A DNA stretch of 63,953 bases, the filler included, from Craspedostauros australis (lineage: Eukaryota), in assembly GCA_030167865.1 (NCBI GenBank). It is 9 parts of 9 records of this genome, joined end to end, with 100 filler letters (N's around TTAATTAATTAA, not from the genome) between each part and the next. Parts side by side here need not be neighbours in the genome. Positions count along the whole stretch, not along the records: positions 33,630 to 35,289 come from JALAGF010005698.1; 8 more parts are not named here. One strand, 5' to 3'. The notes under the pieces are model-generated. The model ran no database searches and was not told the DNA's origin. It saw only the letters and a list, made by a program, of their open reading frames with translations. Below, in pieces: positions 31,035 through 63,953 of this stretch. The number at the start of each line of letters is the position of its first letter. The stretch's first letter is position 1. Position numbers and translations under genes: made by a program.

Positions 31035-31249
31035 NNNNNNNNNNNNNNNNNNNNNNNNNNNNNNNNNNNNNNNNNNNNNNNNNNACCTGAAACCCACAGC
31101 AGCCCATAACTTATCTAATATAATGATGATCCACCTCGGACATTTTTTTATATATACTTCACAACACGCTGCATATTATTCTGCAATAACCTGAAAACGC
31201 ATGTAGACTGCTCCCCCCGCGACTCGTTGGTTTGTGACTGAATGGGCTC

Positions 31250-31814: not shown

Positions 31815-31858
31815 NNNNNNNNNNNNNNNNNNNNNNNNNNNNNNNNNNNNNNNNNNNN

Positions 31859-31870
31859 TTAATTAATTAA
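31859..31870. other. Artificial scaffold spacer TTAATTAATTAA
   Basis: Six-frame stop 12-mer flanked by N runs. Confidence 0.97.
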
Positions 31871-31914
31871 NNNNNNNNNNNNNNNNNNNNNNNNNNNNNN
31901 NNNNNNNNNNNNNN

Positions 31915-33529
31915 GAGACAATCGTCCACATAGGTGCCGATTAAAAGCAGTTGCCCTTCCTGATTCCAAATCAGTAGGCATGGGTCTACCTCACTCTGCC
32001 TGAACCCCAGTTTGAATAGGATGTCGACGAGCTTCTTATTCCATTGTCTGGCACTCTGCACGAGTCCGTAGATGGTTTTCTTGAGCAGCAGACATTCGTC
32101 GGTTTCGTGCTTCATGCCTTTCGGGCATTGCATGTAGATCTCCTCGTCGAGGTCACCGTGTAGGAATGCTGTCTCGAAGTCGATGATGATACTATCTAGC
32201 TTCAATATCATCTTCATGGTGAGCATGATGCGGTAGGTTGCGTCATGTATCACCGGTGCATGGTGCGCTGAGAAGTCGACTCCTGCGATCTGCGAGTATC
32301 CGCATGCCACGAGTCTGGCGCGGAATACCCCGTTTCTCTTTTCCTTGAAGACCCATTTGGTCTTCACGCACCGCCGNNNNNNNNNNNNNNGGTCCTTCTT
32401 GATCTTTTCCCATACTTTCCTTCTGGCCATATCGTAGAATTCCTTGTTGATGGCTTCTCGCCATTTCTTTCTCTTACTGGGGTCCGCGTGGTCCCAGCAG
32501 TCCTCAAATGTGGTTGGGTCCAGCAGCATAGCGATGCTTGCTAGTTCCATCCCATCCTCATTTGGTTCGTTGTTCAATGCTTGGTCCGCAGTGATGATAT
32601 CGTCGAGTCTCATCATTCCGTGAGGTGTATCTATCATCATACCTNNNNNNNNNNNNNNNNNNNNNNNNNNNNNNNNNNNNNNNNNNNNNNNNNNTTTGCG
32701 AGTATCCGCATGCCACGAGTCTGGCGCGGAATACCCCGTTTCTCTTTTCCTTGAAGACCCACTTGGTCTTCACGCACCGCCGATTTCTCGGCATCCGGTC
32801 CTTCTTGATCTTTTCCCATACTTGCCTTCTGGCCATATCGTAGAATTCCTTGTTGATGGCTTCTCGCCATTTCTTTCTCTTACTGGGGTCCGCGTGGTCC
32901 CAGCAGTCCTCAAATGTGGTTGGGTCCAGCAGCATAGCGATGCTTGCTAGTTCCATCCCATCCTCATTTCGTTCGTTGTTCAATGCTTGGTCCGCAGTGA
33001 TGATATCGTTGAGTCTCATCATTCCGTGAGGTGTATCTATCATCATACCTGCGATATCTCTGTTGAATGTTGACCCGTCCGCGTGGAAGTCGGGTCCTCC
33101 TGTGTCCGATGGGGATGCGATAGTCTCTTGGGGTGTCTCGTACCCTTCGTCTGTATTTGATTCTGACTCATCGCTCGATTCGAGGTCTCGCTCCTCCTCT
33201 GGAATGGGCTCTTTGTTATACCCTGCGAGAGCACTCACCATCCTTGGTACGCGTTGCACAGGTTCTGCGATAGGGGTCTGCTCCGGCTCATATTTGGCCT
33301 CTTCATNNNNTCTCCCCTCATCGTCCCTTCCGAATTCGTCGCCGTCATTATCGTTCGACTCATTTTTCCCTTGGGTGGGGAGCAAGTCATCTTGCCCTCG
33401 CGCAGCGTCTTCTGTATCTTCTTTCTCTCCGGCTCTGCTGCTGCAATCTGCGTCGTCGGTCTCCATGCCTTTGATGGTCTCCGATCGTCGCTCCCAAGCT
33501 GCTCTCGTGTGTCGAGTCTTCATACCCGA
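31915..33529 (-). mobile_element. Ty1/copia retrotransposon pol fragment (linker + RVT_2 reverse transcriptase)
   Basis: DPTTFEDCWDH..WREAINKEF..KTKWVFKEKRNGVFRARLVACGYSQIAGVDF..IDFETAFLHGDLDEEIYM..LKKTIYGLVQSARQW..DPCL..YVDD. 32291-32644 is repeated at 32697-33050. Confidence 0.96.
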
Positions 33530-33573
33530 NNNNNNNNNNNNNNNNNNNNNNNNNNNNNNNNNNNNNNNNNNNN

Positions 33574-33585
33574 TTAATTAATTAA
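33574..33585. other. Artificial scaffold spacer TTAATTAATTAA
   Basis: Six-frame stop 12-mer flanked by N runs. Confidence 0.97.
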
Positions 33586-33629
33586 NNNNNNNNNNNNNNN
33601 NNNNNNNNNNNNNNNNNNNNNNNNNNNNN

Positions 33630-34141
33630 GATGTTGAGTCTGCTGAATGGCTCCGCCTCTAGCAGGGCAACTTGTCATACTTCCATCTGGTTGGCATTGA
33701 TGGCGATCGGCGTACTTCCAGTGGGCGTCTTGGTGAGTGTACCACAACCTTGCAGCTCATTGCCTCGGCGAGTTCACGATTGGTGGCTTCCTTCATCGCG
33801 AGTTTCAATCACATTTGGGTTGCCTTGCTGGCAACAGGAGTCTTGATGGTTCGTACCTCATACCCGGTCGTTGTAGTGAACTCGTTAATGGCTGCCCAAT
33901 CGGTTGCTTGGTCGATTTGCCGTTCTTTCGCGAAAGCGAAAATGCGAAGGATGTTCTCAATGTTGATCAAGGTGAGTGTTGGTGAGAGAGCCAGCGCTTG
34001 GATGGTGTTTTTGTCTGGACTCTTGATGGCGCGTTCGATCCTTCTGAGTTGCTTGTTGATGAACTCCATTTCTTTGTCATCGAGGTNAGCAAGTTCCTTG
34101 ATTACGGCTGTCAAAGCTTGGTTGTTGATTGGTCTTGCCAT
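33630..34141 (-). pseudogene. Probable gag 5' region of an LTR retrotransposon, interrupted by stops
   Basis: ATG (MARPINNQALT..) lies about 40 nt downstream of an LTR end and PBS; in-frame TGA at 33809-33811. Call rests on position, not on a recognised domain. Confidence 0.55.
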
Positions 34142-34181
34142 GGTGGTTGATGTTGTAAAGGTGATATGCTTGTTGGTAAAC

Positions 34182-34195
34182 CACGACTCTTAATC
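34182..34195 (-). promoter_or_regulatory. Primer-binding site GATTAAGAGTCGTG (complementary to a 5'-half tRNA-Lys(CUU)); second copy at 34519-34532
   Basis: Directly abuts the LTR 3' end (..TTTGACA). Its complement CACGA-CTCTTAA-TC reads as anticodon stem, loop with CTT, and 2 nt of the 3' stem. Confidence 0.7.
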
Positions 34196-34357
34196 TGTCA
34201 AAGTGCACAAGTAACTCCTGGAGACGTATTGGCCCGTTGTTGCGTGCCCTGGTCGGAGCTCTTGTTCTTTTATCGTGAGTTGTTCGAGGACAATCTCCAA
34301 CCAGTATTTTGACTAATATGATTTGTAAAGAGGTAACAAGTACAGAGAAAGCTGTCA
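34196..34357 (-). mobile_element. 5' LTR (about 162 bp, TGACA...TTTGACA)
   Basis: TG..CA ends; boundaries agree with the TSD-flanked solo LTR at 35006-35175; followed by PBS and ORF. Confidence 0.75.
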
Positions 34358-34532
34358 CCTGCCATCATCACCATTGTTTCTCTTGCCAACACCACCTTCA
34401 TTGCCATCACCATTGCCTTCTNNNNNNNNNNNNNNNNNNNNNNNNNNNNNNNNNNNNNNNNNNNNNNNNNNTTGCCATGGTGGTTGATGTTGTAAAGGTG
34501 ATATGCTTGTTGGTAAACCACGACTCTTAATC

Positions 34533-34695
34533 TGTCAAAGTGCACAAGTAACTCCCTGGAGACGTATTGGCCCGTTGTTGCGTGCCCTGGTCGGAGCTCT
34601 TGTTCTTTTATTGTGAGTTGTTCGAGGACAATCTCTGACCAGTATTTTGACTAATATGATTTGTAAAGAGGTAAAAAGTATGGAGGAAGCTGTCA
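34533..34695 (-). mobile_element. 5' LTR, second (gap-duplicated or allelic) copy, 163 bp
   Basis: Part of the 34135-34421 / 34472-34759 duplication; contains AATAAA; same TG..CA ends and PBS. Confidence 0.72.
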
Positions 34696-35005
34696 CCTGC
34701 CATCATCACCATTGTTTCTCTTGCCAACACCACCTTCATTGCCATCACCATTGCCTTCTGTGACAGAATCATTCGGGTTGCTTCCCCATCCTCATCTTTG
34801 TTGCCATCACCAGCATCGTCCTTGACAACAGCATCGCTGTGGGTAGCACCACCACCTTCGTTGCCATGGCGGCGACCNNNNNNNNNNNNNNNNNNNNNNN
34901 NNNNNNNNNNNNNGCTGTCTATGTCAATGCTGCCCCAATCAACACCACCGTCGCTGTCAGCATCATTGTGGCCATCGAATGCATGGCGGATAACGCCATG
35001 TCCGT

Positions 35006-35175
35006 TGACAATTCTCACAGAATTCCTTACTTCTTACTTCTTTACTAATCGTACTAGTCAAATACTGGTCGGGGGCTGTCTTCGGACAGCACTCACAAAT
35101 AAACAACAAGAGCTCCGACCAGGGCACGAAACAACGGGCCAATACGTCTTCCATAGTTACTTGCACTGTTTGACA
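35006..35175 (+). mobile_element. Solo LTR (170 bp) with 5-bp target-site duplication TCCGT
   Basis: TCCGT|TGACAATT....TTTGACA|TCCGT; internal AATAAA; homologous (inverted) to 34533-34695, including AACAAGAGCTCCGACCAGGGCACG.AACAACGGGCCAATACGTC. Confidence 0.85.
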
Positions 35176-35333
35176 TCCGTCATGAAATAGGAGTAGTACC
35201 TTTGCGTGCAGTCTGGGGTAGCCGTCGTCAAAAATGGAATGGTTGATGTAGATCTTCATGAACAAGTTGAAAAACGCAGATGATAGTTGNNNNNNNNNNN
35301 NNNNNNNNNNNNNNNNNNNNNNNNNNNNNNNNN

Positions 35334-35345
35334 TTAATTAATTAA
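35334..35345. other. Artificial scaffold spacer TTAATTAATTAA
   Basis: Six-frame stop 12-mer flanked by N runs. Confidence 0.97.
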
Positions 35346-35389
35346 NNNNNNNNNNNNNNNNNNNNNNNNNNNNNNNNNNNNNNNNNNNN

Positions 35390-36937: not shown

Positions 36938-36981
36938 NNNNNNNNNNNNNNNNNNNNNNNNNNNNNNNNNNNNNNNNNNNN

Positions 36982-36993
36982 TTAATTAATTAA
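36982..36993. other. Artificial scaffold spacer TTAATTAATTAA
   Basis: Six-frame stop 12-mer flanked by N runs. Confidence 0.97.
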
Positions 36994-37037
36994 NNNNNNN
37001 NNNNNNNNNNNNNNNNNNNNNNNNNNNNNNNNNNNNN

Positions 37038-37983: not shown

Positions 37984-38951
37984 ATGCCGAATGTCACAGA
38001 CCAACAACTCCTTGTTGCTGCCTGGGAAGGTGGCTTGTTGGTGTTGAAGGAATGGAAGAAGCAGAACAAGACGCAGAATGAAGGAGTTGATGTCAACAAG
38101 GTCAGTGACTGGTATGGTCGGACTCCCCTTCATGTGGCATGCAACAACGGCCACCTGGAGTGTGTGAAGTACCTCGTCGAAGCATGTGAAGCGAACATCA
38201 ACTGCAAAGACAACAATGGTTCCACTCCCCTTCATGTGGCATGCCGCAACGGCCAGCTGAAGTGTGTGAAGTACCTCATCAAATCATGTGCGGCGAACAT
38301 CAACTGCAAAGACAACGATGGTTCCACTCCCCTTCATGTGGCATGCTGCAACGGCCAGCTGAAGTGTGCGAAGTACCTCATCGAATCATGTGAGGCGAAT
38401 ATCAACTGCCAAGACAGCGATGGTTGGACTCCCCTTCATGCGGCATGCCGCGATGGACAGCTGGAGTGTATGGAGTACCTCATCCAATCATGTAGGGCCG
38501 ACGTCAACTGCACCGCCAATGATGGTGACACTCCCCTTCAGTATGCATGCCGCAACGGCCAACTGGAGTGTGTGGAGTCCCTCATCCGAGGACTTTCACC
38601 TTCACCTTCAGCTCACCCACAACTGCAACAACTGCAGCAACACTTACAACAAAACGAACAAGAGAATGGCAACAACAAGAACAGCTGAGACAACAGTTGA
38701 AGCGAAAGAGGCAAGAGAATGAACACAAACACAGCAGCCACAAGCGGACCAACATCAGCATTAGAGAAGACCGACTCAAGTCCTTCTAAACTGGGAACAG
38801 GACAGATTCCGTCTTCTTGTGTGGACAGGACGACGAACAGTAACCAATCAAGGCAAACTCCGAAGTCCTAATGATCACCCTCCCATCCATTGAGACACTG
38901 ATCGACATAGGAATCCAACACCAGCACGCGAATGATGGCACTGAAGACTAC
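37984..38951 (+). pseudogene. Ankyrin-repeat gene (ORF 37984-38688, about 5 repeats) with frameshifted, stop-interrupted coiled-coil/BTB remnant
   Basis: TPLHVAC.NG.L.CVKYLI..C.ANIN repeats at a 102-bp period. In a shifted frame: ISIREDRLKSF*TGNRTDSVFLCGQDDEQ*PIKANSEVLMITLPSIETLIDIGIQHQ, colinear with the open paralog at 62886. Confidence 0.85.
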
Positions 38952-43511: not shown

Positions 43512-43671
43512 CTGTGTGATCAAAGAGTAAGTAATGCAATGGCGCCAGACAGATGATGGACGGATGAATGAATGAATTTGTACCGTATGTTAGAATGCTC
43601 GTGGGATTGCGCAGGGCGGAGGGGCCGNNNNNNNNNNNNNNNNNNNNNNNNNNNNNNNNNNNNNNNNNNNN

Positions 43672-43683
43672 TTAATTAATTAA
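43672..43683. other. Artificial scaffold spacer TTAATTAATTAA
   Basis: Six-frame stop 12-mer flanked by N runs. Confidence 0.97.
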
Positions 43684-44213
43684 NNNNNNNNNNNNNNNNN
43701 NNNNNNNNNNNNNNNNNNNNNNNNNNNTGCGTGATGAACCCTGCTCGTGTCGCTCCCCTGCTCGTGTCGCTCTCATCGTCGGCTGTTGCTGTGAACATCC
43801 TCCCTCCGCTCCGCTCAACGTGCGTGTGATTGCGCAGTCCAGATGTTTCCCTGGTGTTTTCGTTCGTTTCATTAGGACACACTCGGATTGTTTCGCACAA
43901 GCAACAGTGTCTGGTTGCCTAGTCCATCCTCTTGTGATCCAGAAAGGATGTCACCCCACGTGGACGAAGCTCCTTGCCCATTCTCCACACGGCTTTCCAG
44001 TGGGTCCGAGATACATTGTTGGCAAACAGTGTTCCCCACAGCAAAGCATAGCACTTACACGATGAACCAGTCAGTGCGATGATGTGCTCGCCTTTTTTCA
44101 AACCAGGACACCAGACACCAACTCACTAGAACAGACAAGGGAGAGCATCCAGGATTACCATTGTTTGCATGTTCAATTTTGGCTATTTGTTACTACTAAG
44201 TGGGACGGGCTAT

Positions 44214-46443: not shown

Positions 46444-46803
46444 GCCTGTCCTGTCTCATGCGTGTCGCACACCCATGTCGTGTGGGTGTCTATCCTAACG
46501 CACTCCACATAGAGGCACATGGTGAGTCGCACGCGAGCTCAACGATTCCCTGACGAAACGGCGCACCTGGTGAAGAGCCATCACGCCACGTCAGGGTGCA
46601 CGTGCATTGTCGGAGGCGTGCGCGACGCAGGCCGAAGAACCATGTGTATCGTCAATCGTCGACTCACAGGAACCATGTTTAGCGTACGTTGAGCGTTGAG
46701 TCTAGTGTGCTTCAACTATACACCAACCATTGTAGATATATACTCGTAATAAACATATANNNNNNNNNNNNNNNNNNNNNNNNNNNNNNNNNNNNNNNNN
46801 NNN

Positions 46804-46815
46804 TTAATTAATTAA
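46804..46815. other. Artificial scaffold spacer TTAATTAATTAA
   Basis: Six-frame stop 12-mer flanked by N runs. Confidence 0.97.
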
Positions 46816-46859
46816 NNNNNNNNNNNNNNNNNNNNNNNNNNNNNNNNNNNNNNNNNNNN

Positions 46860-49670
46860 GGTCCAAGAGTACGGCATCGACTTGCGGGAGAGGACGCCAA
46901 CTACCATTCGAGCGTGGGAGAAGGAGGAATGGCTGATGCCGGCGCTGCGCGGAGCAGGGTACACAAGAGCGCAACTGGAGCGTCTGAATCGATGCAGGGT
47001 AAAAATGCAGGTGATGACGACTGGGGACGTGGCGTGCGCGGAAGTAGAGCTCCCTCCAGAGACGGCACGCGGCCGATGGCGAGGACGAGCTAGCATAGCT
47101 TGGCCGCGGCAAGGACCAATACCGGACCAAGACTGGAGGTTGTGGGGGCGAGCGATACGCAGAGTTCGAAGACAGCTCTCGACAGACGGCCGAATGGTGG
47201 CGCCACCGGAAGCTCTATGGGAGGTGCGCACAAGCGCAGTGTGGACCAGGGAGAGCGGGGGTCGTTGGCAGAAGTGGGCGGCACGAGCTGGCGACGACCC
47301 AGGATTACAGGGATTCTGGCGCCAAGGGCAACCCACAGAACTGGCAGCAACGCAGGGACGCCAAGTATGGCTCCGACAACGGGATGAACAGGTATACGTG
47401 GTGGGAGTGGGCAGATGGTGGAGACAACCGAGCGGGGCCGTGAGGTCGGAGTTCGGGGAAGCCGCAGAGAAGTGGGTCCAGGCAGCACGAGAAGGTAGAG
47501 CTGTTATCAGCACCGATGGGTCGTTTAAGGACGGCAGGAGCACGGCGGCTTTCTCGTTGAACGTGCGAGGGCAACGTGATGGATGTTTACAGATGGCGGG
47601 GCCGGTGCAAGGAAGACAAGCAATACAAAGCGCGTACCGAGCAGAGCTAGGTGGCATATACCAAGCCCTGGNNNNNNNNNNNNNNNNNNNNNNNNNNNNN
47701 NNNNNNNNNNNNNNNNNNNNNGGGACGCCAAGTATGGCTCCGACAACGGGATGAACAGGTATACGTGGTGGGAGTGGGCAGATGGTGGAGACAACCGAGC
47801 GGGGCCGTGAGGTCGGAGTTCGGGGAAGCCGCAGAGAAGTGGGTCCAGGCAGCACGAGAAGGTAGAGCTGTTATCAGCACCGATGGGTCGTTTAAGGACG
47901 GCAGGAGCACGGCGGCTTTCTCGTTGAACGTGCGAGGGCAACGTGATGGATGTTTACAGATGGCGGGGCCGGTGCAAGGAAGACAAGCAATACAAAGCGC
48001 GTACCGAGCAGAGCTAGGTGGCATATACCAAGCCCTGGTGGTGGCTGACAGAATGCTTCGGGAATCCGGCACAGAGTGTGGTGCTTCTGCGGCGACAGTT
48101 GTGGTCGCCTGCGACAACCGCATGGCCGGCATCCATGCCGTGGAATACGATCGCGATGTACACATAGGAGTCCAGCACTTCGACCTCTTGAGGGCGATAC
48201 GACAGGTGACAAGGACGATACCAGCAAAACTCGAGTATCGACATGTGTATGGTCACCAGCTGGAGCGCGATCGTGGCGTCGCGAGAGACGAGTTTGCCTA
48301 CTGGAATGACGACGTTGATCGCCTGGCTGGAATGGAGCAGAAAAGCCACAAGAGCAGCACAGACGGCGAGTGGAGAGATGATGAGTGGTCGGTGTGGCTT
48401 CGGTCATGTAAAGTGTGTCGAGGTGTGAAGACTGAACTTCGGCGCCATGTCCAGAGTGCGAAGACGTGGGCGTGGCAGCGCAAAACCAAGAAGATGTCGG
48501 CGGAGGTGATCGAGCGCATCGACGTGGAGTCGGTTCAGGCAGCTATGGGGCGCATAGGCAGTGCGCGAAAACGATGGGTGGTGAAGCATGCCGCAGGGTT
48601 CGGGCCAGTGGGGCGTAATATGGCGAAGTGGGGGTTCTGGGCGAGCAGCGAGTGCCCGATTTGTCGCGACGAAGAAGAGACGATAGAGCATATATTGCAG
48701 TGCCGGCACCCCGCAGCAATGGCAGTGAGGGAAGCTGCGCTTTCCGAATGGAAGGACAACATGCTGCAGTCCGGAGGAGATGTGGGCATGGTGAGTGAAA
48801 TGGTGCGCCAAATCAGGAGCTGGTGCAATAAGGAGGAGCCGGAGCCAAGAGCACAGCGAGTGGTCCAAGAGGCCGTTAACGATCAGCAGGCGATCGGGTG
48901 GGGGATGATGACGAGAGGGAGGTGGTCCAAGAGGTGGCGACAGGTTCAGTCAGCTCGAATGGAGATCGAGGCAAGGCCCATGAAACCGGCAAACTGGATG
49001 GGAGCGGCAGTCGCAGGACTGTGGGACGTGCGATGGAAAGCCTGGGAGGCGCGAAACAGGGTGCTACATGACCGGGAAGGGCGCAAGCGCGAAGCAGCTG
49101 AGACGGTAGCAGTGTGCAGGATGGTGAATCAGCAGTGGGAGATGAGGGATGCAGACATTATGGCGGCGGATCGTGGGCTGCTAGCGAATGTTACACGGAA
49201 CGAACTCGCAAGGTGGCCCGTGGACGACCAGCGCCGATGGGTGAGGCATGTGCAGGCAGCGCGGAGCGCGGCCAGAGCAGCCAGCGAGCGGAGGAGCGTA
49301 GTGGAAAGCGAGGCACGCGGAGAGAGCCAATGACTTGCGAACGACGCGAGACGGCAACGACGAGGGCGGAGCAGGAGCAAGCGACGGTTTGCTGCGGCTT
49401 CAGGTGACGGAAGGGCAAGAAAGCGACGACGTGGAGGACGGATCGGTATATGAGGCAAGTGAAGAGCATGGCGGGCGCAAGCCGGATGCCCAGTGCGGTA
49501 TGTTAGATGGCCCATGGAGCTGGCAAACCATGGTAGACTAGGTAGTGAGAGACCCAGTGCAGTCGTTCCAGCGCAATCGGCCTTTGGCTCGTTGTATGCG
49601 GTCGACTCTAAAGCCTTCGAGGCAACCCTGTGCGCAGGGGATATTCAGTGAGTTATTATTATTATTATTA
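46860..49670 (+). mobile_element. Non-LTR retrotransposon (LINE) 3' part: ORF with RNase H and zf-RVT-like zinc knuckle (stop at 49333), 3' UTR, (TTA)6 tail
   Basis: RNase H motifs STDGSFK, SAYRAELGG, VACDN, RHVYGHQ, WNDDVDRLA; CPICRDEEETIEHILQC; LWDVRWKAWEARNRVLH; TTA x6 at 49653-49670. 47355-47671 is duplicated at 47722-48038. Confidence 0.9.
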
Positions 49671-57821: not shown

Positions 57822-57873
57822 GCTGCCGANNNNNNNNNNNNNNNNNNNNNNNNNNNNNNNNNNNNNNNNNNNN

Positions 57874-57885
57874 TTAATTAATTAA
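57874..57885. other. Artificial scaffold spacer TTAATTAATTAA
   Basis: Six-frame stop 12-mer flanked by N runs. Confidence 0.97.
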
Positions 57886-59268
57886 NNNNNNNNNNNNNNN
57901 NNNNNNNNNNNNNNNNNNNNNNNNNNNNNGAGAGGGAAGGAAAGAGGAGCAAGAAGAGTGGAGAGAAGCGAAGGGTGGAATGACACCAAACGAGTAAGTA
58001 CCGGTACGGTACCGTACGGTAAGGCAAGGTGGGGCGTTCTTCATATCTTCGGTTACTATGTCAGAGCATCAACCACCAACACATTGCCATTGCGAGTAGG
58101 TACTCGCATGTGGTCTGTCTCCACATCGGCACCAAGGGAGAGAAACAACCTGAGCAAGCCACATGACCTGCATGAGCAAGTATCTTCCTTTGAAACAAAC
58201 AAATCCAGAAGCTGGAGGTCACAAGTTTGAATTCAGTGATGAAGTGACGAAGCGACGGAGTGGCGAGGGAACAATCGAAATTCAATGCCACGTGTCCCAG
58301 AGTCTCCATGTCTGCATGACAGTGCGAGACAGCGTTGACATCTTCAACATCCTCCACAAGGTGGATCGGCTGAACAAATAGTCTCTTGTCCGGGATCTCT
58401 TTTTGTGGTCGCTCTTGAGATGTGTTGGTGTGTTGGTGTGTCGCGAGCGTGCTGTTCACAGACACGACACGGAAGGTTCCTGTTGTTGGAGTTTCTGTTT
58501 CGGAAGTGAAAATGTGAGGAGGTGAGAGCGATGACGTCACAGATAACGCCACGGATGGTGTGACGTGACCGAGGGAGGCTTCTCGTTCTTTCCGCTTCTC
58601 TTCTCACATTTCTTCTTCCGTTTCCATCGTCTGTTTGTGCTTTGCGCTTTGCACTTTGCACCTCCGGTGATCATGTCAGATGGGCTCTGTACCAGTAGTA
58701 GAATGGTATGATTGTGTACTAGGTAGAATATTCTATTCTATTAGTATGTTATTACTCTACTCGCGAGATATATGATCGTACCTCCTTCTCGTACCATCGA
58801 GCGCAATCCATGAAGTCATCTCTTGTCTGTCCTGTGGAGGGGAAGATTTGGTCACCATCATCACCATCACCATCACTTCCGCCTCGTCATTCCGCTGCAA
58901 CAATGAAGATGAAGTACGTATTCTGCTCACTCACACTCAGGCATTCCAAAAGCAGGTTCGGGCATGTCGAATCCACGACAACATCGAAGTGTTCAACACT
59001 GTGCTCTAACCAAAGACATGCTACGCACGTGCGGAGATGTTTGATCGTTCTTCATTCTATGTATTCACTATCACTATCGCTCTCTCCCTCTCTCTCTCGA
59101 GTTTTATATATGTACAATCATGAGCATGCACGGTGTATCTTTCGTTCTTTCGCTCTTCACATTGATGTATGGTCTGCACGCATGCTGCTTGATGCCGGTG
59201 CGCGCAAGCTGGAAAATTGATTGATGTCGATTGCGGACCGGAGTGTCCACNGCTTCGGCATAAAGAGC

Positions 59269-61469: not shown

Positions 61470-61601
61470 GGATGGCGGTGATTGTCGCGTTTCTTGTTTG
61501 GTTTTGTCAAGACGGAGAGCGATGTGGCTTTCGGTGGTTGCTGGTTTCCGTTGTTTCNNNNNNNNNNNNNNNNNNNNNNNNNNNNNNNNNNNNNNNNNNN
61601 N

Positions 61602-61613
61602 TTAATTAATTAA
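61602..61613. other. Artificial scaffold spacer TTAATTAATTAA
   Basis: Six-frame stop 12-mer flanked by N runs. Confidence 0.97.
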
Positions 61614-62885
61614 NNNNNNNNNNNNNNNNNNNNNNNNNNNNNNNNNNNNNNNNNNNNACCAACCAACGAGCAACCCCATGCAGAGTGCGAGTGCCGTATT
61701 GCGGATCATGGTTGACACAGAGTTTCCATATGGCACAAGAAGCACGCGGTCAGCGGTCCATGGCCCATGCGCGCACCGTACACCCACATATCCTCCTTTG
61801 TGGTGCTCCCAACTTCGTTCGTGAGGTGGATGTTCCTGTCGATCGCCTCTGTTGAGCATCGATGCTCTGGAAGTCACGAGCCAAGACGGCAGCACTCATG
61901 CCTATTGATAGAATGTGCATGGTGTTGTGTATTGGTGGTCCGTGTGGCAGGAACAGTGGAGGCGGCACAGTATCACTCCGCCTGATGCTTGCTGAAGGTG
62001 CCACCCCAACCCATCCCAATACGCAATGTGGTGTTGGTTTGATGTTGAGGACTCTTGTTGCCTGTGCGGATGGTGATGGTTGCAGTGCGGTGGGATGGCA
62101 ACCAGTCAAATCCAAATGAGATGGGTCGCAACCAACAAAGACAACCAACACAGGCAATCAACAAAGGCAGTCACATCGGTGGCTTTATTGGTGGCTTCGT
62201 TGTTGTTCGAGGCATTGGCTCACACCTCAAGTTGGTGCTTGCGATGGCAGGCGGACGAGGGTCAGCGGTCTTGCAGATGCCACGATGACGCAAGCAAGCA
62301 AAGGTCATGGTGCACATGATGCACATACTGGTGGTGGTGCGGACAGCTCCTTCTCTCTCTGTCTCTCTGTTTCCGAAGACTTTGACGTTGTTTGCTTCGG
62401 ATTGGTGTTGCGTTGATTGTGGCCAAACGAGAACTCTGTTGTGGTGCTTCTTTCTTGTTGTTGGTCGCACGCATTTTCGTGATGGATGGGAACAGAAAGA
62501 TCCAATCCGCGCGAACCAGACGGGTGCGATCAAGAGAAGGAGACAAACACAGGCAAACAGAAGGAGGAGACCATGCGAACAAGACAACAGCACACACACC
62601 ACCCAACCCCATACTCAACCGCGTGAACAACAGACATCGAATTGCCACTCATATTCATCACACAGCGTATGGTACTCATACTCNNNNNNNNNNNNNNNNN
62701 NNNNNNNNNNNNNNNNNNNNNNNNNNNNNNNNNTACAAGCTGTTGCATACACAAACATCGATATCTCTTCCATAGGCAGCTCCGACCACAGACATCCTCG
62801 ACAGCCAATCCAACGTATATCGTCCAACTTCCAACGTCCAACGTCTATCGTCCAGCAACCATCGACCATCCACCACACTCTCAAA

Positions 62886-63953
62886 ATGCCGAGTGTTACC
62901 AACCAACAACTCATTGATGCTGCCAAGGCAGGTGACTTGTCAGTGTTGAAGGAGTGGAAGAAGCAGAACAAGACGCAGAATGAAGGAGATGGTGTCAACT
63001 GCAAAGACCATGATGGTTGGACTCCCCTTCATTGGGCATGCTGCAACGGCCAGCTGGAGTGTGTGAAGTACCTCATCGAATCATGTGAGGCGGACATCAG
63101 CTGCAAAACCAACTCTGGTTGCACTCCCCTTCATTGGGCATGCTACAACGGCCAGCTGGAGTGTGTCAAGTACCTCATCGAATCATGTGAGGCGGACATC
63201 AACTGCAAAGACAACAATGATTCCACTCCCCTTCATTGGGCATGCTACGGCGGCCACCTGGAGTGTGTTGCGTACCTCATTGCATCAGCCAATGCCGATG
63301 TCAACATCCAAGACAACGACAACAAAACACCCCTCGATGTGATCGGTGCGAAACTTCCAGTCAAGATGATAAAATGTCTCGATGATCTGAGTCACCGCAA
63401 CTCACAACTGCAGGAGCAGTTGGAGGAGAACGAGCAAGAGAATGAACAACTGAAACGGCAGTTGGAACAGAAGGAGGAAGAGAAGACACAGAAGGAGCAA
63501 GAGAATGAACAACTGAAACAGCAGTTGGAACAGAAGGAGGAAGAGAAGACACAGAAGGAGCAGGAGAACGAACAATTGAAACAGCAGTTGGAACAGGAGA
63601 AGGAATCAACGCAGCGCTTGCTCTCGAAAAGTCAACTGGAGAACGAACAACTGAAACGGAAGTTGAAACAACATCTCAAGATCAGCATCGACCAAGATCG
63701 TTGCGCCGCTGTTCATGCTGAGGCCATCGCAGACGTTACCTTCCTGTGCGGACAAGGGGACGAACAACAACCAATCAAGGCAAACTCCGCAGTCCTCATG
63801 ATCACTGTCCCATCCATTCAGACACTGATCAACTCTGGAATCCAACATCAATGCGCTCACGATGGTGCCCACGATGGCGCTCAAGATACAACTGAACCCA
63901 TCCAAACAACCATCCCTCTTCCCAACTTTCAACCAAAACACGTCCGATACGTC
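62886..63953 (+). CDS. Ankyrin + coiled-coil + BTB-like protein (runs off the window end; absent from the ORF track)
   Basis: Hand translation is open from ATG 62886 to the end: MPSVTNQQLIDAAKAGDL.., TPLHWAC x3, EQENEQLKQQLEQKEEEKTQK repeats, then ADVTFLCGQGDEQQPIKANSAVLMITVPSIQTLINSG..TIPLPNFQPKHVRYV. Confidence 0.88.
   Translation, partial: MPSVTNQQLIDAAKAGDLSVLKEWKKQNKTQNEGDGVNCKDHDGWTPLHWACCNGQLECVKYLIESCEADISCKTNSGCTPLHWACYNGQLECVKYLIESCEADINCKDNNDSTPLHWACYGGHLECVAYLIASANADVNIQDNDNKTPLDVIGAKLPVKMIKCLDDLSHRNSQLQEQLEENEQENEQLKRQLEQKEEEKTQKEQENEQLKQQLEQKEEEKTQKEQENEQLKQQLEQEKESTQRLLSKSQLENEQLKRKLKQHLKISIDQDRCAAVHAEAIADVTFLCGQGDEQQPIKANSAVLMITVPSIQTLINSGIQHQCAHDGAHDGAQDTTEPIQTTIPLPNFQPKHVRYV
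63432..63596 (+). repeat. In-frame 63-bp tandem repeat (3 heptads per unit), about 2.6 units
   Basis: GAGCAAGAGAATGAACAACTGAAAC(G/A)GCAGTTGGAACAG.. starting at 63432, 63495 and 63558. Confidence 0.92.

Follow-up and report, generated by a model that had tools for sequence, protein, structure and literature searches.

Known and proposed elements primed by internal tRNA fragments

Drosophila copia, 1731, yeast Ty5 and Volvox Osser possess a primer-binding site (PBS) which immediately follows the 5' LTR and is the complement of an anticodon stem-loop (PMC1181622, PMC8515867, PMC5371799), an arrangement which was also found at the locus described here. Synthesis of hemivirus cDNA has been reported by Gao et al. 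to start from the 3'-OH of nucleotide 40 of the tRNA (PMC1181622). A review of Ty3 describes the priming of Ty5 from internal cleavage of tRNA-iMet, with a half-tRNA likewise described for copia (PMC5371799), in agreement with a preliminary description of this DNA, which had named half tRNA-iMet priming for both elements. Other primers have been reported as well. The plant element Bianca uses a half tRNA-Ile, while Osser/Bryco/Gymco-II use a half tRNA-Met, and it is stated by Neumann et al. that among plant LTR retrotransposons half-tRNA primers occur only in Ty1/copia lineages (PMC6317226). In fungi, Copia and Helenus elements were found by Kojima to have anticodon-loop PBSs against tRNA-Tyr, Ile, Asp, Asn and iMet (PMC10886601). 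The Candida Tca2/gamma elements have an internal tRNA-Arg(UCU) primer (PMC4139406), and the preliminary description had likewise attributed the priming of Tca2 to a tRNA-Arg fragment. Such cases show that the primer tRNA species switches readily between Copia lineages. The principle in Bianca, Osser/Bryco/Gymco-II, Copia/Helenus and Tca2/gamma is the same as here, with differences in tRNA species and in hosts, none of which is a stramenopile.

A lysine primer has been published for the FunCo1 clade of fungal Ty1/Copia elements, the PBS of which is the complement of an internal stretch of tRNA-Lys (Donnart et al., 2017; PMC5445492). The spreadsheet supplements of that paper hold no more detail on the FunCo1 PBS, and its supplements in other formats may contain some. 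The CoDi elements are the Ty1/copia elements of diatoms (Maumus et al., 2009; PMC2806351), and the main text on them is silent on PBS or tRNA. No anticodon-arm PBS of a diatom or other stramenopile was found in the literature searched, which took in some of the supplements, and two recent papers on diatom transposable elements and one on an oomycete make no mention of a PBS or tRNA. The preliminary description had suggested that lysine half-tRNA priming in a diatom might be undescribed. This has to be narrowed, as the lysine case itself is already published for FunCo1 (PMC5445492), and it is the part concerning diatoms, and stramenopiles in general, which stands for the literature searched.

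The locus described here probably represents the beginning of an LTR retrotransposon (its 5' end) in a diatom-like stramenopile. The element is most likely of Ty1/copia type and has a PBS directed against nt 27-40 of cytoplasmic tRNA-Lys(CUU) and not against the tRNA 3' end. Like hemivirus-type elements, which have their primer 3'-OH at nt 40 and short LTRs (PMC1181622, PMC8515867), it combines an nt-40 register with a short LTR, and a 5-bp target-site duplication was found in its LTR family. It differs from them in the tRNA species, as hemiviruses use initiator tRNA-Met (PMC1181622) whereas the site here matches tRNA-Lys(CUU). The primer fragments of copia and Ty5 have moreover been shown experimentally, as cited in PMC1181622, PMC8515867 and PMC5371799, whereas the element here is known from sequence alone.

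LTR boundaries and assembly context

The window (the whole stretch of DNA analysed, 63,953 bases with a G+C content of 53%) was found to consist of several scaffolds chained by eight N44-TTAATTAATTAA-N44 linkers. These linkers, which contain stops in all six frames, occupy positions 31815-31914, 33530-33629, 35290-35389, 36938-37037, 43628-43727, 46760-46859, 57830-57929 and 61558-61657, and the adjacency of features across them is without known meaning. The window codes for a myosin, an HCO3 transporter, ankyrin and TPR proteins and a DUF6824 protein. Ankyrin repeats are encoded by 102-bp tandem repeats in two regions (38058-38623 and 62858-63865), which are paralogous, 80-87% identical and ~24.9 kb apart on different scaffolds. 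The element sits on a scaffold of 1660 bp (33630-35289), which ends 510 bp past the ATG of the element, so that any 3' LTR, PPT and pol of the element fall outside it.

The predicted 5' LTR is 162 bp in length (34357..34196, minus strand) and has TG...CA ends, starting with TGACAG and ending with TTTGACA; a TATA-like ATAAAA is located at position 85 of the LTR. It is directly abutted by the predicted PBS GATTAAGAGTCGTG (14 nt; 34195..34182, minus strand), with an ATG 40 nt further on. The layout given in the preliminary description, with no spacer between an LTR ending in TTTGACA and the 14-mer, was recovered on the minus strand. The sequence GATTAAGAGTCGTG was not found in the literature searched.

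The 14-mer occurs twice in the window, at 34182-34195 and 34519-34532. The block 34135-34421 recurs at 34472-34759 (minus strand) beyond a gap of 50 N (34422-34471), and this second version includes the flank, LTR (34533-34695), PBS (34519-34532), leader and ATGGCAA. The two versions are 7 substitutions and 1 indel apart, all of which are within the LTR, and they are identical over the 64-nt upstream flank and over 61 nt downstream. Duplication of this kind is present at nine of the window's 14 internal N gaps (those at 31035, 32377, 32645, 34422, 36026, 36338, 42334, 42530 and 47672), where the sequence on the left side recurs on the right at 95-100% identity. These gap-flanking repeats are unmerged overlapping contig ends, which produce false tandem duplications throughout the assembly. 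As the same duplication affects nine of the 14 gaps, the second 14-mer was assigned to an assembly duplicate, and the junction of the LTR with GATTAAGAGTCGTG is one locus and one independent instance, not two copies of the element. The fact that the versions differ inside the LTR alone suggests that reads of other LTR copies were mixed in, and thus that more copies exist in the genome.

The ends of the LTR could be placed with the help of a second, diverged LTR. BLAST of the element block against the window identified a match on the opposite strand, initially at ~35017-35175, which proved to be a solo LTR of a related family (170 bp; 35006-35175, plus strand; TGACAATTC...TTTGACA), 81% identical and oriented head-to-head with the element. 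In a three-way alignment of the LTRs the similarity begins at TGACA and ends exactly after TTTGACA, so that these boundaries are common to the LTR of the element and the solo LTR. The latter is flanked on both sides by a perfect 5-bp direct repeat, TCCGT (35001-35005 and 35176-35180, plus strand), which is an integrase-type target-site duplication. The LTR family of the element therefore combines TG...CA ends with a short target-site duplication, the duplication being that of the solo LTR. Because the solo LTR has this duplication and shares its boundaries, the repeat family is a true LTR with its 3' end fixed to the base, and it follows that the first internal nucleotide of the element is also the first base of GATTAAGAGTCGTG. 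Neither a Lys site nor an ORF follows the solo LTR, and no further LTR copy was detected in the window by BLAST. The region between the two head-to-head LTRs (34358-35005) contains imperfect GGTGATGGCAA-type repeats with a Gly/Asp/Asn-rich translation without a family match, and is probably host sequence into which both LTRs inserted.

The match to tRNA-Lys(CUU) and its alternatives

The complement of the 14-mer, CACGACTCTTAATC, consists of a 5-nt stem strand, a 7-nt loop with the anticodon CTT and 2 nt which pair back, a 5+7+2 arrangement which the preliminary description had assigned to the anticodon arm of tRNA-Lys(CUU). The stem was completed by Watson-Crick rules to give the 17-mer CACGACTCTTAATCGTG, with which a metagenome collection was scanned. 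The 17-mer was found at at least 120 metagenome loci, and among the matches listed ARAGORN predicted a complete tRNA-Lys(ctt) containing the arm in 107 of 120, in support of the assignment; as these loci were obtained by querying the arm itself, such counts do not represent a frequency among diatom tRNA-Lys genes. The other 13 listed loci comprise eight truncated or partial tRNA-Lys genes and five unrelated sequences. The listed arm-bearing tRNA genes are eukaryote-like, with flanks of 30-67% GC and at least 42 distinct 5' parts. This diversity of 5' parts indicates that the arm is widespread, and CACGACTCTTAATCGTG is, as far as predicted genes can tell, a widespread natural arm of tRNA-Lys(CUU). 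One contig (L055) carries an arm-bearing tRNA-Lys gene together with a mitochondrial carrier gene, the named relatives of which, among the 120 matches listed, are all stramenopiles (brown algae, chrysophytes, Vaucheria and Phaeothamnion, at 56-73% identity), and this places the arm in stramenopile nuclear DNA. The host's own tRNA-Lys(CUU) presumably has the matching arm, to judge from these genes. In the listed arm-bearing genes the TC which pairs with the first two bases of the PBS corresponds to nt 39-40, and a primer would accordingly end at nt 40. The site thus resembles a hemivirus-type PBS in being adjacent to the LTR, complementary to an anticodon stem-loop and in the nt-40 register, with metagenomic tRNAs serving as surrogates for those of the host.

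Some arm-bearing genes were found in unusual settings. Two metagenome loci (L005 and L010) contain four to five different tRNA genes per ~560 bp, an arm-bearing tRNA-Lys(CTT) included. At a third locus (L087), ~24 nt are inserted into a tRNA-Lys(CTT)-like gene, a few nt after the anticodon stem and before the T arm, on account of which the gene was not called by ARAGORN; the insertion could be a non-canonical intron, or the gene could be disrupted.

The specificity of the match was assessed with 119 distinct tRNAs of all kinds taken from the listed metagenome loci, which were compared with the 55 nt after the LTR. The longest exact match, over 14 nt, was shared by 67 distinct tRNA-Lys(ctt) genes, and the other isoacceptors in this sample matched over at most 7 nt. 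The 3' CCA ends of all 119 tRNAs matched over at most 5 nt, a result which bears on the location of the PBS. A TGG-type stretch, TGGTTTACCAAC (34183..34172), begins 12 nt downstream of the LTR, and a tRNA with the 3' end ...GTTGGTAAACCA could anneal to the TGG and the 9 nt that follow it. Were this the real PBS, the lysine match would be incidental. It is, however, highly improbable that priming occurs there, since besides the short CCA-end matches a spacer of 12 nt is long, and a perfect 14-nt complement of tRNA-Lys at the LTR would be left unexplained. The tRNA concerned would also require a 5' acceptor strand beginning TTACCAA, which is unusual for nuclear tRNAs. The absence of a TGG-type PBS, as originally reported for this element, was in this way borne out for the tRNAs sampled. 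Self-priming of the Tf1 type was also considered and rejected, as the LTR contains no complement longer than 6 nt to the 30 nt which follow it.

The match to tRNA-Lys(CUU) could in principle be due to chance alone, with a 14-mer beside a repeat happening to equal a tRNA segment. There is a single independent instance of the junction, and the loop with its closing pairs, GA-CTCTTAA-TC, is conserved in many tRNA-Lys(CUU) genes, which means that the match is partly to a widespread motif. Against this, the odds that a fixed tRNA segment has its exact complement of 14 nt at the LTR end are of the order of 1e-7 per tRNA species (own arithmetic), and the next-best isoacceptor falls to half that length. 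The lack of a spacer and the end at nt 40 also coincide with the position predicted by the known mechanism (PMC1181622). None of 100 shuffles yielded the 23-mer of the LTR end, while the 14-mer with up to 2 mismatches has 0.27 occurrences expected per window. Pure chance was given very little credence.

A different explanation is that a 3' or solo LTR landed in or beside a tRNA-Lys(CUU) pseudogene or a tRNA-derived repeat, in which case the 14-mer would be host flank and not a PBS. Upstream of the LTR lies a loosely PPT-like stretch, with 11 purines in 15 nt, but the run is interrupted by T and C and no pol-like coding was detected upstream in a Pfam search; the weak purine richness and the absence of upstream pol coding together favour a 5' LTR over a 3' LTR. 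A solo LTR is not indicated either, because the flanks of the 162-bp LTR are unlike each other (GCAGG upstream and GATTA downstream) and there is no target duplication around it. Insertion beside a pseudogene would be in keeping with a downstream ORF which is an orphan with an early stop, and with the motif GTTGGTA, which resembles a D loop and closely precedes the 14-mer in the tRNA sense. However, the similarity of the upstream 34 nt to 5' parts of tRNA-Lys is at background, with 605 of 3846 random windows reaching the score, and GTTGGTA is therefore evidence neither of a decayed tRNA gene nor of an extended pairing. An extension of the pairing to the tRNA D loop through this motif was rejected on the same count. 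The likeness to tRNA breaks off sharply at nt 27, and at its other end the break is exactly at nt 40, which is the hemivirus register (PMC1181622). ARAGORN predicted no tRNA gene within the window, and a search of Rfam at E<=10 returned no tRNA. No tRNA-like sequence was found beyond the anticodon arm, as would be expected of a tRNA gene, a pseudogene or a tRNA-derived SINE. An origin of the 14-mer from a flanking pseudogene or repeat was for these reasons considered unlikely.

With GATTAAGAGTCGTG taken as a PBS, a mechanism can be proposed by analogy with copia and Ty5. A cut behind nt 40, within the 3' strand of the anticodon stem, would release a 5' fragment of the tRNA-Lys(CUU), which would pair with the 14 nt directly downstream of U5. 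The new 3'-OH of the fragment could then prime minus-strand strong-stop DNA into the 162-bp LTR. On this analogy we infer that the tRNA fragment would be cleaved, packaged and used as primer, and that the copy would be active. The Lys-arm string was absent from one supplement of a P. tricornutum small-RNA paper.

The PBS of FunCo1, ATTAAGAGTCT, and the site described here have the same 10-nt core, ATTAAGAGTC (PMC5445492). The two sites differ in the three stem bases (CAC here), as they should if each element is fitted to the tRNA of its own host. The hosts of FunCo1 are Pezizomycotina as opposed to a stramenopile here, and FunCo1 is defined by RT phylogeny, whereas the likeness observed here is that of the PBS alone (PMC5445492). 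It can be tentatively suggested, though it is rather doubtful, that stramenopiles contain an LTR-element lineage whose gag is unrecognisable and which primes from an nt-40 5' fragment of tRNA-Lys(CUU), using the same PBS core as FunCo1. If such a lineage does exist, the trait would be either an old one, distributed across eukaryotic supergroups, or the product of convergence or horizontal transfer, and in both cases the host would have to produce a defined fragment of tRNA-Lys(CUU), 40 nt in length.

If the PBS is confirmed in full-length copies, truncated-tRNA priming, in the Lys(CUU) variant so far represented by the fungal FunCo1, would extend to diatom-like stramenopiles. Confirmation would also allow such elements to be classified cheaply in algal genomes, where standard LTR tools seeking tRNA 3'-end PBSs would miss an anticodon-arm PBS, and it would predict a specific 40-nt 5' fragment of tRNA-Lys(CUU) in diatom small RNA. 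The Lys(CUU) case leaves the understanding of the priming mechanism itself unchanged.

Leader, ORF and class of the element

An untranslated leader of 40 nt (34142..34181, minus strand) separates the PBS from the ATG at 34141, which has the context ACCACCATGG. An LTR, PBS, short leader and ATG in strong context make up the standard 5' end of such elements. The ORF which starts here has 109 codons (33815..34141, minus strand; stop at 33812-33814) and is possibly the N-terminus of gag. It has no match to a Pfam family, a word-based search found no longer homologues, and there was no usable match in the ESM atlas. When searched with full HMMER against 1.84 billion representatives, a single weak match was obtained, to a repeat protein of 3526 aa (E=3.9e-5), which was judged spurious. 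The stop after codon 109 suggests that this copy of the element may be dead.

The element is most likely of Ty1/copia type, an assignment made by analogy on the basis of the 5-bp target-site duplication of the LTR family, the short LTR and the type of priming (PMC6317226, PMC10886601). Copia coding sequence was found on a separate scaffold (31915..33529, minus strand), which carries the C-terminus of a Ty1/copia integrase and an RVT_2 fragment (E=3.5e-34). This fragment has 90 homologues at E<=1e-5, many of which are metagenomic polyproteins of ~1450-1500 aa with gag, PF22936, PF25597 and RVT_2, and its closest named relative is a protein of the diatom Cylindrotheca closterium, which makes a diatom-like stramenopile a plausible host. 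No sequence overlap or other link was found between this scaffold and the element. Given this, and as the order of the scaffolds is without known meaning, the copia scaffold shows only that copia elements live in the genome. The 109-codon ORF has no similarity to the gag N-termini of the 90 copia polyproteins (phmmer against 91 proteins), and a profile of the copia alignment showed no similarity to the six translated frames of the scaffold bearing the element.

Relatives were also sought in other collections. The copia alignment found no relatives in viral_contigs and 13 loci in contaminated MAG contigs, most of them 5'-truncated and of the same family as the copia scaffold (31915-33529). None of the 13 contains TTAAGAGTC, and their 5' regions yielded no complement to a tRNA over 11 nt or more. 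A search of viral_contigs with a 16-mer, composed of CA and the PBS, gave three matches, all of which were chance coding sequence. Likewise, an 11-mer search in five of the copia-bearing MAGs gave two chance matches and no tRNA.

Elsewhere in the window, an ORF of 560 aa (47651-49333, plus strand) has a weak zf-RVT match (E=2e-4), which is under the Pfam cut-off, and may be what remains of a non-LTR retroelement.
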